Shown here: positions 7,251 to 58,799 of the stretch, in pieces
Position numbering within the stretch: the stretch's first letter is position 1
How the letters are laid out: every line of letters begins with the position of its first letter
DNA from: Carcharhinus longimanus
Taxonomy: Eukaryota
Direction of reading: 5' to 3'
DNA: 64,000 nt
Assembly (NCBI GenBank): GCA_030264375.1
Contig: JASCQW010000112.1
Coordinates: forward strand, 9,571,648 to 9,635,647
Notes under the pieces: generated by a model
The model's database searches: none
What the model was told of the DNA's origin: nothing
Seen by the model: only the letters and a program-made list of their open reading frames with translations
Position numbers and translations under genes: made by a program

Positions 7251-8150
7251 TAAGTGCAAGAGCTTCACTTGGTCTGTGTTAAGCAGATCCCCTTGTCGCA
7301 GCAAGAGAGCTATTAAGAATGCAAAGATCTGATTTGAGCCTGCATAGGGAGAATTCTTAGATAAGATCAATAAACCTTGAAAATGCTGAATTCGAGCTAT
7401 GATATTTCAAATTTAATTAGTGTGGCTGTTAACCCTTTGAAAGAATTTGAATTTCTCACAGCTTCAGGATATTCCAAAGCATTTAGCAGATAATGAAGTA
7501 CAGTCATTGTGTAATCAGATGCAGAAATTAATTTATGTTCATCAAGGTTCCACAAGCAGTGAAGCAAACTCCAATTTCACAGCACTTGAGATTTTTTACA
7601 CCCAACTGAGAAGGGTTTAATATCTCATCTCCTCAAAGACTGCGATGATGCAGTGCTTCATGCAGCACTGAGGGTGTCTAAGTCTAGATTGTGCTCAGTA
7701 TGGGATGTGGTGTGAAACAACAGCTGTCACTGTTTTCTGAACCAAATTAACTTTTTTTCTGTCATAGTAAAGCAATTATTTGTATTGATGTAATAACCGA
7801 AAATGCTGGAAAGATTCAGCAGATCTCTGCATTTGTGAAGAGACAAACACAATGCCAGGAAGCCTACTGTGCCCGCCCTAGTCCAATGCCAGCATCTCCA
7901 CATCATGACTGGATGTGACAGGACTGCAAAGCTTGGATCTTATCCATTAATTGTGTAATCACTTGGCTATCTTGTTGCAGGCTGCTTCTGTTTTTGGCAT
8001 GCAAATTCTCCTGTGTTATAATTTCGCTAGGTTGACACATTTTTAGGTGTGCTTGCTGCTGCTCTTGGCATGCCTTTCTCCGCTCAACTAAAAGAAATGG
8101 TGAAATAGGATGTCCGTTTATAAGCATCTTCTTCACTGTTTCTCCACAGT

Positions 8151-8378
8151 GGGATGGCACAGTGATTAGCACTGCTGTTTCATATCGCCAGGGACCTGGG
8201 TTCAGTTCCCAGCATGGGACACTGTATGGAATCTAGCCATGCTAAATTGCCCCTCAGTGTCAGAGGGATTGGCTAGGGTAAATGCACAGGGTTATGGGAA
8301 TAAGCTTTGGTTAGGAATGTGGTTGGTGCAGACACGATAGGCTGAATGGCCTCCTTCTGCACTGTATGATCCTATGAT
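8151..8378 (+). mobile_element. HE1-like SINE with internal deletion
   Basis: Head GCACAGTGATTAGCACTGCTG...GGTTCAGTTCCC; tail GGCCTCCTTCTGCACTGTATGATCCTATG. Confidence 0.75.
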
Positions 8379-29908: not shown

Positions 29909-30057
29909 GTTTACTGGCACAATTATCAAAGATGTCCTCAACATGGGTTCGTACAACTACCTAGGCTTTGCTGAGCGTCAAGGCTTCTGTGCCGATGCAG
30001 CAACGAGAGCAACTGTCCAGTATGGAGCTGGGGTTTGTAGCACACGGCAAGAAATTG
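29909..30057 (+). CDS. SPTLC2: SPTLC2 coding exon (exon 4 equivalent), 149 bp
   Basis: Bounded by aaattag| and |gtgagt. Translates [49 protein letters not shown](G), with the [10 protein letters not shown] motif of the alpha-oxoamine synthase family. Confidence 0.96.
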
Positions 30058-30487: not shown

Positions 30488-30527
30488 ATCACTTGTTGAC
30501 CTTTTGGCTAAGATCAAGTGTAATATC
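30488..30527 (+). pseudogene. U2 snRNA 5' fragment (nt 1-40), 3'-truncated
   Basis: ATCACTTGTTGACCTTTTGGCTAAGATCAAGTGTAATATC matches vertebrate U2 ATCGCTTCTCGGCCTTTTGGCTAAGATCAAGTGTAGTATC at 35 of 40 positions. No Sm site or 3' stems follow. Confidence 0.9.
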
Positions 30528-30598
30528 GACATGCTGTGCTTGGTTGAAGTCATTAGGTTACATTTTAGCTTAATCTGAAGCAATTTTTAAAAGCGACG

Positions 30599-30617
30599 TC
30601 TCGGCCTTTTGGCTAAG
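30599..30617 (+). pseudogene. Second U2 snRNA fragment (nt 7-25)
   Basis: TCTCGGCCTTTTGGCTAAG is a 19/19 match to U2 stem I. AGATCAAG (U2 nt 24-31) recurs at 30627 and 30680. Confidence 0.8.
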
Positions 30618-31156
30618 TTGCAAATGAGATCAAGCCTTGCAGAAGGTGCAATGCCTCTTCCAATCAGCTTGGATCATGTAGATCAAGCCCAAGACTGGAG
30701 GTGAGAGCCCTGTCTTGTCAGCTTGGATCAGGAATGTCTCAACTTGAGACTCTGAATTGGACTTGATTTGACTGAATTGGATTTTTAAAAAATTGCAGCA
30801 GAGGAGGACATGTATTTGAATTCTTCACACTGCATCAAACATGTTGCTATGCTGTGATTATTGCCTGTATTGGCTCACACTGAAGAAAGTGTCTACTTGC
30901 GAACAGGGTGAAAGGAAAAGAAATGAAAAGATCTGGTATCTCGAGTGTTTACTTGCAAACGTACAATGAGAATGGCAGAAGGCAGCAAATCATTTATTCC
31001 TTTTAAAAATCGTTCCAATACAGGACAGAGAGGTGCATTTTTTTACTCGTCATAAGGTGCAGTGATGTAGTTCTACAGTACCTTTTGTTTCAAACATCTT
31101 AATGTGTGATTAGCTAATCACTTTGAAATGCAGTGATGGTTGTTGCATAGGCAGTG

Positions 31157-31379
31157 ATGTGAAGTTGTCAGCATTGGACTGGAGTAGGCACAGTAAGTAG
31201 TGTCTCAACACCAGGTTAAAGTCTAGCAAGTTCACTTGGTAGCACAAGCTTTCGGAGCACTGTCCCTTCATCAGTGAACACTCACTGATGAAGGCACTCG
31301 CCTATGAAGGAGCAGCACTCAAAGCTCTTGCTACCAAATAAACCTGTTGGACTTTAACCTGGTTGTGAGACTACTAGCT
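31157..31379. mobile_element. Palindromic non-autonomous Penelope-terminus element with 14-bp TSD
   Basis: Arms CAACACCAGGTTAAAGTCTAGCAAG... and ...AACCTGTTGGACTTTAACCTGGTTG are inverted. TTGCATAGGCAGTG occurs at 31143-31156 and 31380-31393. Confidence 0.8.
31243..31276 (-). ncRNA. Minimal type I hammerhead motif (Penelope terminus, minus strand)
   Basis: Reverse complement reads CA-CTGATGA-A-GGGAC-AGT-GCTCC-GAAAGCTT-GTG. Core is intact; stem II has one mismatch. Confidence 0.65.
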
Positions 31380-31829
31380 TTGCATAGGCAGTGCTGTGAT
31401 TTTAAAACCTATTAATAATTGCAGATGTTTCATTGATTAAATATTGATAGGAGTTACAGATTAAATGCAAGAAATCTGGGACTGAGAGCAGCAGAAACTG
31501 GCTTCATGTAGGGTAGTGAGACTCTGGCATGCTTTATTGGAGCTGTGTGATGAAAGTGGAGATCTTCTCAACATTTGAGAAGAGGTTAGAGAGGTGATTG
31601 AAGGGAAGGAGACAGCTGAGTGGTATTGGGTCTGGTCTGTATGGAAGTAAAGCAACAGTACAAGTTGCTTCAACTGAATTACTATTACCCTGTTCTATGT
31701 AAATGATCCTATTGTAAAGAAGTTCCCAGAACACAGCATGCTGGGTAGCTCTCAGTAACACAAATGGCAATGTTTTGTTAATGACCTGTTTCTATGATAG
31801 TGGAATGATATTTATTTTTAAGGTATTCT

Positions 31830-33159: not shown

Positions 33160-33364
33160 TGATATGGAGATGCTAGCATTGGACCTGGGTGGGCACAGTG
33201 AGAAGTCTCTCAACATCAAGTTAAAGTCCAACAAGTTTATTTGGTAGCACAAGCTTTCAGAATGCTGCTCCTTGGCTCATCTGATGAAGGAGCAGTGCTC
33301 CAAAATCTTGTGCTACCAAATAAACCTGTTGGACTTTAACCTGGTGTTGTGAGACTAGTTACTA
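33160..33364. mobile_element. Palindromic Penelope-terminus element
   Basis: Same inverted arms around a central CTGATGAAGGAGCAGTGCTCCAAAA (decayed hammerhead). Confidence 0.8.
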
Positions 33365-33614
33365 GGATTTTTTAAATGGTGCACTCCTTTATTTGTAGTG
33401 ACCAAATTATAATTCCAGAGTTATATAAGTGTCAAACTGTAATCTAATGACTTTGGTACGAAATTAGCTACTCAGACTAAGTGCAATGGTCAAATAATTT
33501 GACAATGTGCTGTATTTTTCTCGTGTAAGAAACTTGCAGAATTGTCAATGTGCCTTTGATAGTGGTTGTAAAGTTATGTCTCACCCTGGAATTCCTCCCC
33601 AATACTTATTTTAT

Positions 33615-36434: not shown

Positions 36435-37780
36435 ACTTCTGCAGTGTTGAAAAGAGACATGCTGTCTACGCTTTTCATCTCCCACTCATCAGGATAGATC
36501 ACAAGATTACCAACAGTAAAGAGAACAATAATTTACACTATATAAGAAGTGTGCGGCTTTGGTTGCCAAGTTGACATTTGGCACAGACAGTCATGAAAAA
36601 TGTGGCAGGACACAGTTAACTACTAAGCCTTTATTTGAATTCAAACCAGGCAGGTAGGCTCTGGTCATCGTGGAGATACTGGTGTTGGACTGGGATGGAT
36701 AAGATGAGGTCACATGACACCAGATTAAAATCCAGCAGGTTTATTTGAAATCACAAGCTTTCAGAACACTGCTCCTTCGTCAGATGAAGTGGAGCAAAGT
36801 GCGCAGGCACAATAATTGGGTGGAGTGACGATAGCCTGACACTAACAAGTACTCGAGTGTCAAAGGATAAGTACAGTGTAATGCAAAGTAGGCTGACAAA
36901 AAATCATGAGTTCTATTGGATGAATGCAAGCAGTTAAGTATGTGTAAAGTGTCGACAGGCTGTATAACAAGTGAAAGGATGACTTAAGAACCGATAATTT
37001 AAAGCAGAGAGAGAATTACAAACAGTGAGATGGTGCTAAACACTACGCAAACTCAGGTAGAGAGATCATCACCATAATCAAGGTGTGCACGGTATCAAAA
37101 CAGGATAATGAGGGAGATTTTCCCCGACCGAACAGTATGATGGGGTTACATATAGCATGACATGAACCTAAGATCACAATTAAGGCCATCTCATGAGAGC
37201 AGAACTTCGCTACCAGTTTTTGCTTGGCGATTCTGCATTGCATGTCTCTACGGCTGCCTTGGAGAGCACTTATTCAAAGACCGGAGGCCGAATGTCCTTG
37301 GCCACTGAAGTGTTCTCCAACTGGGAGAGAACATGCCTGCCTGGCAATTGTTGCGTGGTGTCCATTCATCCACCATCATAGTGTCCAAATGGTCTCATCG
37401 ATATATCATGCTCTGGGGGCCTGCTGCATACGAGAGACTATGCTGGCCAAGTCACATGAGTACATACATACCATGTACCTGGTGGCTGGTGTTCCCCTGT
37501 GATGGTGGTATCCATGTCAATCTTGCATGTTCTGCAGAGGTCATGGTATTGCCATGGGAAATAAACCTTGGGATACCTGTCTCCCAAGATTTTGTTTTAA
37601 TTGAAAAGGGTGCAATGTGTGGGCGTGCTCCTTCTGCCTGTAAAGGACCGGGTCCTGTGTGGTGAATAGATATAACTTCTGGTTTGTATAAATGAATCAC
37701 ACTGCAAGCCTGCCTGATGATAAATTGGTTTTCAGTGTAATTCATAGCACAATCCGAATTGTTTTGCAAGCATTGTACAA
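36435..37780 (-). repeat. Older interspersed repeat split by the Penelope insertion (pieces about 36435-36668 and 37545-37780)
   Basis: Homologous to 850-1230 (AAACCAGGCAG, GCAATGTGT, CACACTGCAAGCC, GTAATTC) and to 20885-21050. Confidence 0.6.
36669..37540 (-). mobile_element. Decayed Penelope-like retroelement 3' part (GIY-YIG endonuclease remnant plus terminus)
   Basis: Minus-strand frameshifted peptides GNTSHQVHG..., a YIDET (YIG-box-like) motif, VGEHFSGQGHSAS and QCRIAKQKLVAKFCSHE. Its terminus at 36669-36790 is homologous to the palindromic elements. Confidence 0.8.
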
Positions 37781-50710: not shown

Positions 50711-52876
50711 AGTCCCCACTATTGTTCTGCTAAGCAACAGTTAGTGTTTCAGATAAAGTTGTACCCCTGAGATAGTGTGGCATCTTGCCTTTTGGTTGTT
50801 TCTGTCACAGCCCAGCTTTGAAATCAGCAGACTGTGAATCACAATGTATTTTCTAGTAATTAATTTGTATTGTCTGATGCATCTTGATGGTTCACAAATA
50901 TGTAATCATGTTCACTATTAAAATGTTTAAACATAACTCAGACAATCCAGTAAAGCCTGCATGTTTTACTGTTGGATAATGTAAGTGTTCATGAGTGGAC
51001 CCTGATAATAGTGATGGTGTTCTTCTGGCAAATTCTTAGATTGGGGTGGAGGAGCAGAAGCCTCAATGTTCTCTTTTTGTTTATTTGTTCGTTGAATGTA
51101 AAGACCGAAGGCAATTATTGGCCGTCCCTAATTGCGTTTGAGACGATGCTGAGCTGCTGCAGTCCATGTGATGCAGGTATGCTCACATTGGTGCTATGTA
51201 GGGAGTTCCAGGTTTTTGACTCCCCATGTGGAATGTGCTTTCAGCAAGCGGCCTTCACCAAATTGTTTGTACATCTCTACATCTTACTTTGCTCCAGTGT
51301 TAAGTCAGGGTACGTTTCGTCCAAGTTATAAATTGAGTCTGAATTGCCTTGTCAGCTCTACTTCCAATGCTGCTTATTACCTGATGGTTTCAATGAATCT
51401 GTCCTCTCCCTCTGAAAGCACTCAAGGATTCCATATAAGACATGCTTTTAAAATAAAGTTCAGCAAGAGTGCATCAACCATGGGTTGATACTGCTCTAAA
51501 CTGTATTTAATTTCATCATACTGTGTGCTCTTCCATAAAAGATTTAAGATGCTACATATTCCAAGAATCTTAACTTGAATAAGTTTTCACCAAATCTTAG
51601 AAAACAAATCATACAAATACATAATTCTAAAAACTGAAGTTTCAAACCACTCTGGGTCTTTCCTTCTGTCTGTAATTTGTACATTCTATAAAATAGAAGT
51701 ATGTCACTGCCTGATGGACGCTTCCTCGTCTCTCTAGTCAGTCCCACCGTATCTGTACAGTGGGTCTCGCCTTTTCTACAAGTGCTGCCACTCGTTTCCA
51801 TCACATTCAGGAATCCGTTCTGATTTATGCTGGATCCAGCTCCCTGGTCTTGGAGAGACAATGGAGATGTTGGATCTATAAACTTAATTGCAGTGACTGG
51901 AGTTGAATGTGGTCTTGTCGATGCCAGGAGGTGGCTTGCTGCCAGTTTCCAACAATCTGACCTGCCGAACAGAAGCTAATTCAGAGAATTATTAAAAGAT
52001 CAGTTTTCTTCAGATAGTGTGTGTGTCTTCTCTTGCTTCCTCCCTGACAATTCCATTCATTTGTTGCTCACCGCCCTGTAAAGGCCTGAGACTTTTTGTA
52101 TATTAAAAAGTCCTATAGAAATGTTTGTTTAAATGTTGGAAAGATATTTGATCTTTTAATTATATTTATGCTCAGAGTATAAATAGGAAATCATTTGGTA
52201 CTTAAGCTTGAGCTACGATGCATTTGGTTTAATCTTGTTCTAAAATTACAACTGAATTTGTCTGCTTTTTAAAAAAAAAGGTTTAACCTGATTAATTAAA
52301 TTAAAGGTGGTGCTTTGTGCATTTATTGTGGGAAATCTAGTAAAGCAGCATAGCAGAAGGGGGAAAAGTGACCTTGTAGTCACGTTTTTTAACTTTGAAC
52401 AATACCACAGCCATTGCAGCTTTACCAATTGGTATTTTTCTAAGTTAAACATGGTGCAGATTTAAATTGGTTGAAAGGGGAGCAGAAACACCACAGTGCC
52501 ACTGGATGGTGCTGTATGTGTGTGAGAGCACTAATGTATGAGTAATGCCTTGAGTATTGGCAGTTAGCCTTTGTGTTGTAAATTTTCCAGCATCACTCTT
52601 CTTCCTGCTTTACCTCCTTCCACCCCTCTCTCCCAAACAATAGTTTCCAGTTTTAAATATTTAATGACAGATAAGAATATGTTTGAAGCGCACTTCAGAA
52701 GTGTCTCATTATGGACGGAGAGTATCTTGGGATTTATAAAGCTTGAATGCTTTTTCTCTGAGCATGTCTGGTATTATTAGCATGTTTAATTTTTCATAAA
52801 CTATATCAGACTGAGTTAGGGTAGTAGAAGTTGGAAGCTGGGGGTACTTAAGCATTTGTTTACTATTTGGAGACTT

Positions 52877-52981
52877 GATGTGGAGATGCCAGCATTGGAC
52901 TGGGGTAAGCTCAGTCAGAAGTCTCAAGTTTACCTGGCAGTCTGTAAATATAGTAAGAAGTCTCACAACACCAGGTTAAAG
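52877..52981 (-). mobile_element. Penelope terminus fragment with partial tandem duplication
   Basis: TGATGTGGAGATGCCAGCATTGGACTGGGG... followed by AGTAAGAAGTCTCACAACACCAGGTTAAAG. Confidence 0.65.
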
Positions 52982-53177
52982 CGCAGAACAGGTTATACTG
53001 ACAGATTTTCCTATTTCAGTCCAACGTTGAAGTGTTCCTGCTGCATGTATGTGACATTCCATTTCCCACAACCATTTCCCATACTTTGATTTGAGTCACC
53101 TTATTGCTGGTATGTGCTGAATTCCTACCAGGCCCACACAGGCTAACAACCCATTTGAAACTGCCTAGATTACTGCA

Positions 53178-53236
53178 CAAACACAGTAAAAAGTCTGACA
53201 AAAAGACTAAAACCTGGTGTTGTCAGACTTTTTACT
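53178..53236. mobile_element. Miniature palindromic Penelope-terminus insertion with 13-bp TSD
   Basis: Perfect 17-bp arms at 53185-53201 and 53220-53236. CTAGATTACTGCA occurs at 53165-53177 and 53235-53247. Confidence 0.7.
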
Positions 53237-53926
53237 AGATTACTGCAGACAGGCCTTTCAGAAAGATTTATTCCATCGTTCGTTGTGGTTTAAAAACTCA
53301 GTTCCTGACAGTACATTTGCGAGTATTTGTCTTGGGTAATGCAACCTGAAATGTTGCTGTTCCTGCTGATGTCTGATCACAAGCAATTTTAAGTTGCTGC
53401 CAGCCTAAGTATTCTTGACCCTACCCCAAGCCTGTGAGCTGAAAGAGCTTTTTAGCTTTACATCAGAAATTCCAATATTACCTTTTTCTTGTGTGTCTGC
53501 AACTAATTTTGTTTCCCCTATTTCCCCCTCTGTATTCCTCTTTCTAAAACACATGGTTCCCACACTGACTGAGGAGAAAGGGGCAAACATGTTGCTGTCA
53601 AGCTTCTGATTGCTGTTTGTTAGGAAGAACGTTAGTTCACTTTCTGACCAGGTTTGTGCAGGTTTTCTCAAACACCAAATATAGCTTGTTGAATGAACCA
53701 GTTGAGTAAGTGTCTTGCTATGATTCACTCTGGTGTTCACAGGTATCTAATTTGTACTGACGTTCTTGCTGACATGGTGAAAAATATCTCTTTCTAATCA
53801 ACGTTGTCCGCTAATGATCCAGTTTTGCTTTCCAAGTCATTCGAACACAAGATAATTTGTGGTATTCCAATTAATACACAACAGCACTTTTCCAGGTCAT
53901 TAAATGGAAACTGATTGCAATGTACT

Positions 53927-56560: not shown

Positions 56561-58551
56561 GCCTCACTAATTAATAGGCCTAGCAGCATCGGCAGACAGA
56601 ACCACAGCTCACATTTCGGGTCAGTGACTTCCATAATAATGGATTCCAACAATTTTCCAACAACAGACATTTTGTACTTTCTGCCTTGCTTCCTTTTTCC
56701 AATCCATTGGAACATTTCCAGAATCCAGGGAATTTTGCTGGAATTTACTTGAGCTCCTTTAAACAGCACCTTCAAGATCTATGACCACTCCGATCTAGAA
56801 GAACAAAGACAGCAGACATGCCTGCAAGCTTCCATCCAAGCTATTCGTCATTCTGATTTGGAAATGTAGCGCCATTCCTTCACTGTTGCTAGGTCAAAAT
56901 CCTAGGACAGTGTACCTACACCACAGGGACTGCCAGGATTCAAGAAGGCAGCTCCCCTCCACTTAAGGGCAGTTAGGGATGGGTAATAAACGCTGGTCTA
57001 GCCAGCGATGCTCATATCCCATGAATTTTTTTAAGTTGGCCAATCACTAGGACAACAGCCTTTGTCCCTGGCATCACAGCAGTAATGAAGTTCATGCATG
57101 ACGTTCAGTTGTATGGTAGGCAGAATGTCTGCAACTTTGTGAATTTGTTCAGTTTTAGGGCCACCTTCAACTGCAGAAAGCAACAGTGTTACTTAAAAGT
57201 TTGCATGTTTTCACAAACATTAGGTTCGTGATGTACTTGGGCATGCCCCATATCCATCATGGAGTTGCTTTGGCCAACTGATATCTAGTTGAATTCAAGT
57301 CCAATGTGATGAAGAAGCTGCACTTGTGCTACTCAGCATTTATCTTTACTGAATTCTAATACCACAAATCAAAAGAGTACAATGACTATTAAAAGCCAAG
57401 AGAGTAAATATACAGCTATATACACCAACAGTCCCAATCCTAATAAACTGTTAATTGTGTGACAGTCATGCCTTTGAGTTTTGGTGGCTGGAGTAAGTTG
57501 AGAGAACAGACATTTAGTGCAATTAATAGTTGTAATTAGTTTAATTAGTTAATAATATCAGACATATCAAGATTGTAATACGCAGGGATATGTCTAAGGA
57601 AAGAAAACTGTTTAATACTCAGTGATATTAGCACCTACTCCACTCTTGCATTGCCATGTGTCAAATAAGAATCAAAAAATGAGATATTAGCAGCTGTGCT
57701 CTACAATGCACCGTGTTTGCCCCAATAAATAGGACCCAGTTTTTTGATGGGTTTTTTGCATTATCCAGACATAGATCTCTCAGCTCCAAAGCTGATGGAT
57801 TCACACTGCAGAGCAGTATATAGTCTCCTCCAACTAACTTAACGGCATTTTCAGCTGAGCCTCCTTTGCATCGCTTTGACATTCAGCATGAAAAATGTGC
57901 AGAGTGGATAGGAGTCTGTGAGACTCGAGAGTTGGCATGCATCCATTTTTTAGTTTCCTTTTAAAACTGAACACAAAGGTGCACACACCAGTCGTAGTGA
58001 AGCTCGTGACAGGTTGCTAGCGGGCATCTGATAAGGTGGTGACGTTTTTTCTGCCTTTCAATGAAACAGCCCTGTGGTGCCATTTGAGTCACTTCATTTA
58101 AGTGCATTTTTAAAATGTAAAATGGTCTGTTGGATGTTGTGGAACTGGAGAATTTTTTAATGCATTCCGCTTGGAATGTTGATTAAGCTGAACCATAAAT
58201 GGGAAACTGTAGAGAAAGCATCTGCGGCTGGAGAGACAGATCTCAGCATATTCTCCAGTCAGTGTCATTGAGTTTATTAATATTAGATTCCCCCTTTGAA
58301 TTTTTGTTCTAAGGCCACAGGAACAGGTTGTAAACCACAAACATTGTACAAACAATTCATGGTGTTTTTTTGAATTCTGGTTGTGTACTTGGCCTTCATG
58401 AGGCCACAGCACTGTGGGAGGGTGGTACAAAGTTTAAATCTACAAATCATACAAAAGTTTCCTTATCAGGAACGGGATGCTCGTGATACTTTGCCCATAA
58501 TTCACAGAACATTTGAAAGTCAAAGACAAATAATTTTTATACAGTCCTGAA

Positions 58552-58799
58552 GCACTGGTGTGGACTGAACAGTAAGAAGTCTCTCAACACCAGGTTAAAG
58601 TCCAGAAGGTTTATTTGGCAGCACAAGCTTTTGGAGGGCTACTCCACCATCTGATGGAGTAGCGCTCCATCATCTGATGAAGGAGCAGCGCTCCGAAAGC
58701 TTGTGCCACCAAATAAACCTGTTGGACTTTAACCTGATGTTGTGAGACTTCTTACTGTGCTTGCTTACCTAAGCCAAACATCGACATCTCCACATCATG
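58552..58799. mobile_element. Palindromic Penelope-terminus element
   Basis: ACAGTAAGAAGTCTCTCAACACCAGGTTAAAGTCCA... is inverted to ...TGGACTTTAACCTGATGTTGTGAGACTTCTTACTGT; ends CATCTCCACATCATG. Confidence 0.8.
58671..58705 (+). ncRNA. Minimal type I hammerhead ribozyme motif (Penelope terminus)
   Basis: CAT-CTGATGA-A-GGAGC-AGC-GCTCC-GAA-AGCT-T-GTG. Core boxes are intact, stem II is 5 bp, stem III region is the palindrome AAGCTT, and stem I is 3 bp. Confidence 0.75.

Follow-up and report, generated by a model that had tools for sequence, protein, structure and literature searches.

Twin hairpins apparently remodelled from the U2 branchpoint-interacting stem-loop in a SINEU-like retroposon of Carcharhinus longimanus

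Alu dimers, which arose from 7SL RNA, carry a structural RNA domain that was duplicated in more successful later subfamilies, and are known to use an internal Pol III promoter and to have an identified binding partner. Retroposons headed by snRNA sequence have been described in crocodilians as SINEU-1, -2 and -3 (Kojima 2015, PMC4494074). That report describes elements of fewer than 500 bases with A tails, U1- or U2-derived heads, repeated 5′ additions, partial duplications, tandem insertions around a target duplication, and a partner LINE that shares the targets and has a similar snRNA head; SINEU-3, too, is a remodelled U2. The report found no SINEU outside crocodilians and left the mode of transcription open. 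Our own searches of open literature returned no snRNA-headed SINE outside crocodilians; the present family may be catalogued in Repbase or Dfam. Keno, a LINE of the Tx1 clade, inserts in U2 genes, and PMC4640811 and PMC6136364 give its 3′ target there as TCTGTTCTTATCAG, starting at U2 nt 39, the reported site of both Keno and Utopia. For U2 itself, PMC13019295 lists two mismatches in the stem-loop that interacts with the branchpoint (BSL), U27-U43 and A30-C40, and describes A30G and U43A as stabilising mutants, named M1 and M2. Of the sets examined there, M1/M2 alone was expected from prediction to favour the BSL; reporter splicing was slight or absent with M2 and with M1/M2, a result confounded by low expression.

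Here, we analysed a stretch of 64,000 nucleotides from C. longimanus (GCA_030264375.1, contig JASCQW010000112.1, positions 9,571,648 to 9,635,647; hereafter the window), in which a sequence-only reading had noticed tandem hairpins with identical outer stems. These hairpins belong to a 305-base retroposon copy (Table 1) whose span is common to 29 other loci, with homology extending no further on either side (oriented alignment of 30 loci, about 300 bases, from the U2 5′ end to the A tail). The copy lies about 430 bases into the intron that follows an SPTLC2-like exon. Its family shares with SINEU all of the features listed above, a likeness of description and not of sequence. The two differ in that here the 3′ body is itself a diverged U2, the branchpoint stem-loop is locked and duplicated, and the new head is masked; furthermore, the shared target is a Mariner element in crocodilians, whereas here the shared targets include U2 nt 38/39.

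Table 1 Features of the retroposon copy and its context (window positions; nt, U2 snRNA numbering).
Feature	Position	Strand	Basis or remark
Coding exon, serine palmitoyltransferase 2-like host gene (context)	29931–30056	+	phmmer E 1e-13 to human SPTLC2 chains
Whole retroposon copy	30488–30792	+	youngest subfamily (A), sense to host gene, short A tail at end
Head, U2 snRNA nt 1–40	30488–30527	+	35/40 identical to U2 of same genome
Inverted arm, predicted to pair with head U2 nt 25–39, burying the branch-point recognition sequence	30531–30545	+	consensus 15/15 pairs, 5–6 of them G-U
Middle segment, inherited from U1-headed subfamilies	30546–30596	+	alignment through subfamilies
Second, older U2 5′ piece (stem-loop I)	30599–30619	+	alignment to U2
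Hairpin unit 1	30628–30675	+	outer helix 30628–30635/30667–30675
Unit 1 inner stem, U2 nt 22–31/39–48 (BSL)	30637–30646/30654–30663	+	U2 alignment
Unit 1 loop, U2 nt 32–38	30647–30653	+	U2 alignment
Hairpin unit 2, duplicate	30681–30729	+	inner stem 30690–30698/30709–30717; 9/9 Watson-Crick pairs in consensus
Third hairpin, from U2 stem-loop IIb	30736–30750	+	3 consensus bases missing in window copy
3′ tail, from U2 about nt 85–105, with short repeats	30751–30792	+	A tail 30787–30792

The twin units were found where they had been claimed, with AGATCAAGCC-N-TCAGCTTGGATCA matching 30627–30676 and 30680–30730 (0/100 shuffles), and the third inverted repeat was likewise present. RNAfold drew all three hairpins on the window copy, as had been expected, but at an energy no better than that of shuffles (z −0.48, 59/200; z −0.71, 66/300); the family consensus of the same region folded better than its shuffles (z −3.59, 1/300). 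Compared with the consensus, the window copy carries five inner-stem substitutions (30640, 30643, 30657, 30658 and 30696), and the 3-base deletion in its third hairpin leaves a 1-base loop where the consensus has a 4-base loop. The expectation that the consensus would restore pairing was borne out at 30640 and 30696, but not at one G x A mismatch in unit 1, which is fixed across the family. GNRA-like loops, put forward as a shared feature, did not survive comparison: other subfamilies have AGCTATG, AGCTACA or loops of 9–10 bases. The window copy is a decayed, ordinary insertion that is unlikely to have a function of its own. Elsewhere in the window, a dispersed repeat (31155–31384, 33160–33374, 36701–36777, 52876–53239 and 58534–58767) carries CTGATGA...GAAA around a short stem; it had no Rfam match at threshold in the window scan, and we take it to resemble the minimal hammerhead of Penelope-like elements.

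We then investigated the family. A genome search with the window element yielded 1,600 candidates; the 40 that we scored had 89–92% identity, and the outer motif with a free interior occurred 4,140 times in the genome (reversed control, 0). From at least 100 pattern matches we took the leading 30 loci and then a further 60 regions in the order of the list, and three seeded searches contributed 20 loci each; leaving out duplicated loci and U1/U2 gene loci gave 172 loci with 207 element matches, among which a single gapped element is in some cases counted as more than one match. The retroposon is non-coding, dispersed, A-tailed and 200–390 bases long across subfamilies. Target-site duplications (score 10 or more) were observed for 21/152 copies, some of these 21 being tandem junctions, against 6/300 mismatched flank pairs, and 5′ truncation was also found, as in SINEU-type elements. 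Subfamily members share diagnostic changes and the duplication, which indicates amplification from source copies and not independent chimeric retrocopies.

Eight subfamilies form an age series (88–95% identity to their own consensus), in an order read from that identity and not from a tree: S (one unit, U2 head, long body; mean 88.4%, 26/28 copies scored), US (U1 heads, one unit; 88.9%, 20 copies), D (U1 heads, two units; 89.5%, 20 copies), B (90.9%, 20 copies), C (91.5%, 7 copies), and A1, A2 and A3, the window's type (94–95%; 17, 39 and 8 copies). Identities of D, B, US and part of A are biased upward because these copies were drawn from best-match lists. By this sequence comparison the single-unit subfamilies are the oldest, and the twin units arose by internal duplication; the identical outer stems, seen correctly by the sequence-only reading, are therefore explained first of all by duplication of the unit within the element. 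Simpler subfamilies are likewise the older ones in SINEU-1, according to PMC4494074. Five loci (L110, L113, L121, L103 and L131) hold older single-unit copies nearer to U2, some with a U-U mismatch, and may represent a still older subfamily. At another, L045, a longer U2 head (to about nt 50) stands ahead of the usual one, like the 5′ extensions of crocodilian SINEU-2.

Head-to-tail junctions numbered 11, in 10/172 loci (4/85 pattern-sampled loci), and wherever a junction joined different age classes the younger label was upstream (6/6). Arrays of this kind, whose members are separated by the target duplication and have the younger subfamily on the upstream side, were observed at L174 (oriented 706–1801, four SINEs), L170, L168, L016, L038, L105, L082 and L186. 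A shared target repeat at the insertions, other than the LINE end and the SINE itself, was considered and none was evident among 312 flanks.

The origin of the hairpins was examined by alignment with U2. The unit ends had been read as a loose echo of U2, as if the branch-point recognition segment had been replaced by a hairpin; the link to U2 holds, but the hairpin is, by its ungapped alignment to U2 19–60 (24/42 identical; 3/2,000 shuffles as good), that segment's own stem-loop mutated in place. The S body aligned with a U2 gene of the same genome (L061) over nt 19–169 with a score of 120, compared with at most 83 in 2,000 shuffles. On this alignment the oldest subfamily is a near-full-length, diverged U2 (nt 19–169) behind a duplicated U2 head, with one hairpin. 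Its inner stem aligns in register with the BSL of U2, described in PMC13019295, with both natural mismatches closed: U27-U43 by U43A and A30-C40 by A30G. The U-U mismatch is retained in 6/22 S copies, which supports descent from U2, and the stem changes are not ordinary U2 variants, since U2 22–52 is identical in the three main U2 types and in 8/12 U2 loci. The unit further differs from the U2 region in its mutated branch-recognition loop, in the loss of stems IIa and IIc, in its duplication and in a new outer helix, in which a duplicated GATCAAGC pairs with the former stem IIa region.

The third hairpin, stem-loop IIb, stays paired along the subfamily series, which is weaker evidence because the U2 types of this genome differ in IIb. 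Several U2 types (at L061, L062, L063, L064 and L070) share their first 66 bases and differ in stem-loop IIb, the 3′ half and the upstream regions. The retroposon lacks the features of a functional U2 (free branch-recognition sequence, stem IIa, Sm site and 3′ stem-loops); the U2 Sm site is gone from the youngest subfamily. The proposed Rfam scan for a known fold gave no match at threshold in the window, the only hit being U2 (E 1e-4; 32.6 bits against a cut-off of 46, match from 30488). Two other sources were considered and gained no support: a U1 origin of the middle segment, whose direct U1 match was not above shuffles (615/2000), and RNA editing as the cause of the changes, since the subfamily series shows no A-to-G excess (A>G 26, G>A 26, C>T 26, T>C 25).

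The sequence-only reading had further proposed that the same fold is formed from different sequence, and compensatory changes between the subfamilies of this one genome agree with it. With the observed substitutions placed at random and pairs counted, the 8 substitutions from U2 to S raised the pairs from 8 to 10 of 10 (P 0.0015), the 10 from S to A unit 1 kept 9/10 pairs (P 0.019), and the 4 from S to A unit 2 kept 9/9 (P 0.045). Taken singly, only two of the six steps in the series, from U2 to S and from B to C, reached significance; unit 1 of subfamily B falls to 7/10 pairs, and a G-U intermediate is visible at pair 3. In a covariation sample of 78/140 first or single 48-base units (at most 10 per subfamily), cells changed on both sides numbered 83 versus 47 in shuffles (0/500) and 9–24 in slid controls, related copies inflating these cell counts, with double changes at 6/10 inner pairs. 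Two of the five covariation measures (pairs with a double change, and pair types) were not above shuffles. RNAalifold partly recovered both helices, with double changes in 5/11 pairs.

Consensus units gave fold z values of −2.0 to −4.1, and the older ones were 6–9 kcal/mol more stable on the sense strand (S, −20.9 vs −14.5 kcal/mol). The outer helix is conserved in sequence, whereas the inner stems change as fast as the rest of the element and yet stay paired: between consensuses, changes numbered 4/189 in the outer motif, 35/242 in the inner part and loop and 120/842 in the rest, a comparison in which the motif was favoured, as subfamilies were found via the outer motif or seeds carrying it. 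Within subfamily A, copies have decayed at similar rates in inner stems (5.0%), loops (6.7%) and elsewhere (6.6%), which places selection on the source genes and not on the copies. In the full-length fold the outer helices were partly formed (0.34–0.55; terminal GATC pairs, 0.04–0.14) as cross-pairing between the two units is possible. In B, the added U2 head precedes its own inverted copy, giving 11 Watson-Crick pairs in B and the longer, partly G-U arm in A, with head/arm pair probabilities of 0.62–1.0 by fold prediction. These results suggest that the fold was kept while its sequence changed, likely reflecting selection on the RNA of the element.

We also characterized a LINE associated with the SINE; five SINE heads have the 3′ end of this LINE just upstream. 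In 5 of 29 further copies of the LINE the SINE follows directly, and in 1 copy U2 follows, starting at nt 40, an adjacency with a chance below 1e-14 even assuming 20,000 SINE copies; longer stretches of 20 of those loci revealed two further adjacencies. At L295, a SINE copy (2563–2777 and 7890–8187) stands on each side of a near-full-length LINE. The LINE has an APE-type endonuclease and an L1-group reverse transcriptase, as Keno does (L1 ORF2p match, E 1e-37; unnamed APE-RT-zinc-knuckle proteins, up to 54%); no named Keno or Tx1 protein was among those matches. As its 5′ head and insertion sites, including U2 nt 38/39, are common to LINE and SINE, it is likely the SINE's partner.

Poly(A) abutting U2 nt 39 was found at 5 places, 3 with a LINE tail and 2 with a SINE tail; a second pattern also gave 5 places, 2 in common with the first, of which 4 continue as U2 and 1 holds only ten bases of U2. 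In all, 4 SINE copies continue into U2 from nt 39. The LINE itself stands at U2 nt 38/39 at 3 places, and near the site in 1/30 sampled copies. Most LINE copies lie elsewhere, so that its specificity appears loose, and a Keno-like target motif was not general at SINE insertions (3/158 vs 32/1408), most copies being at unlike sites. Relatives of the partner share APE, RT and zinc-knuckle with Keno, and some partner copies abut U2 nt 39; this dispersal is the difference from Keno as described in PMC4640811 and PMC6136364. We regard the partner as Keno-like and as a putative member of the Keno clade, with the SINE as its likely non-coding passenger. Two kinds of locus were observed in addition. 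L253 (oriented about 1863–1930) carries U2 nt 1–37, a bare A run and then U2 again, resuming at nt 39, and has the look of a Keno-site insertion with extreme truncation. L265, L109 and L161 have a SINE tail, 8–10 bases of U2 from nt 39 and a second A run, an arrangement that read-through of a source copy lying in a U2 gene would produce.

The SINE heads end at U2 nt 37 in B and C and at nt 40 in A. Among 21 long LINE loci, 6 reach the 5′ end, of which 4 start with a U2 head, 1 with a remnant and 1 after a SINE tail. Behind the head, 6/7 LINE copies (these six and one shorter) match the S junction at 9–13/16 bases, versus 5–6 for U2, and one continues as U2. About 150 bases past the junction, 6/6 LINE copies hold a TCAAGC...GCTTGGA hairpin like the outer helix of the SINE; the exact motif occurred in 27/20,000 shuffles in a post hoc test, and the hairpin was predicted to form, with probability above 0.6, in 3/6 copies.

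Taken with the U2 alignments, we consider it rather probable that the twin hairpins represent a remodelled U2 segment, duplicated in tandem within an abundant retroposon, whose fold was selected in source genes for copying by a U2-targeting (Keno-like) LINE. Source copies would sit in U2 genes at nt 37–39 and be transcribed from the U2 promoter, which would explain why heads start at U2 +1 and end at nt 37–40. The locked stem and the masked new head would prevent the RNA from serving as U2 in splicing. For a LINE protein, the likely handle would be the outer helix, which is like the short hairpin near the LINE 5′ end, and two units would work better than one. Loci retrieved with the upstream regions of four U2 and six U1 genes contained no source copy behind a promoter, and 3 other matches to one promoter type were not followed by the SINE; copies inside U2 sequence do exist. 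At L202 (oriented about 1490–1590), a fragment of a U2 promoter is joined to no more than about the first 15 bases of U2, beside a retrocopy that we take to be ribosomal-protein-like. A bolder form of this account, which we hold as a tentative possibility, describes an independent SINE lineage almost wholly derived from U2, with sources in U2 genes at the Keno site using the U2 promoter, a BSL locked by the very pair of changes that silences U2 in human cells, and LINE recognition through a helix copied from the LINE 5′ end and not through a shared 3′ tail. If true, it would explain the transcription of snRNA-headed SINEs and give a new mode of SINE-LINE recognition.

The stems may instead serve avoidance alone, with stable pairing that hides the U2 branch-recognition sequence and protects the RNA from decay, and no protein reading the hairpins. 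Both copies of that sequence are indeed buried: the locked stem holds the older copy, and the new head lies under the inverted arm, which grew from 11 to 15 pairs through G-U-tolerant changes, and the loop and inner sequence vary freely. We nevertheless judge this unlikely, as it leaves unexplained the sequence conservation of the outer helix and of its 1x3 internal loop, and the perfect pairing of unit 2, whose loop has lost all likeness to U2. Less probable again, and argued by analogy, is that U2 snRNP proteins hold the locked stem-loop and that the SINE gains its capping, export and stability by way of the snRNP pathway, much as SRP9/14 serves Alu. The natural register is kept, together with stem-loops I and IIb, but the loop touched by those proteins is not conserved, stem IIa is lost and the Sm site is lost in the youngest subfamily. 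PMC13019295 reports SF3B1, HTATSF1 and SF3A3 bound to the natural stem-loop, and also that the stabilising mutants lowered U2 levels in human cells, which runs against this reading.

We give still less weight to an origin without RNA selection, in which the stems would merely follow from duplication together with the correction, at the DNA level, of inverted repeats within a small number of source genes. Such an origin fits the similar decay in stems and elsewhere, the mostly non-significant single steps and the small number of independent events; however, DNA correction would yield Watson-Crick symmetry, whereas the older units depend on G-U pairs and show stability on a single strand, and three separate stems (inner, IIb and head mask) share one trend. 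Finally, a self-cleaving ribozyme or a domesticated host small RNA, suggested by the conserved fold and by the need of SINE RNAs within longer transcripts for processing, is hardly credible given that no Rfam family except U2 and no Rfam ribozyme model matched, that single-unit subfamilies were mobile, that loops are not conserved, and that 5′ ends lie at U2 or U1 +1, away from the hairpins.

The account that we prefer, selection of the fold for copying by the LINE, resembles the Alu dimer in that a structural RNA domain is kept in fold and duplicated. The twin hairpins are thus genuine and probably shaped by selection on structure; they belong to a SINEU-like family from a group of hosts new for such elements, their origin can be traced, and a partner LINE is likely. 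This family provides a second snRNA-headed SINE lineage with a full series of intermediates and a partner LINE, and its copies at the Keno site of U2 make the U2-promoter model testable. Furthermore, it offers a natural experiment on the U2 branchpoint stem-loop, in which a parasite RNA has fixed stabilising changes that were incompatible with splicing in laboratory mutants.
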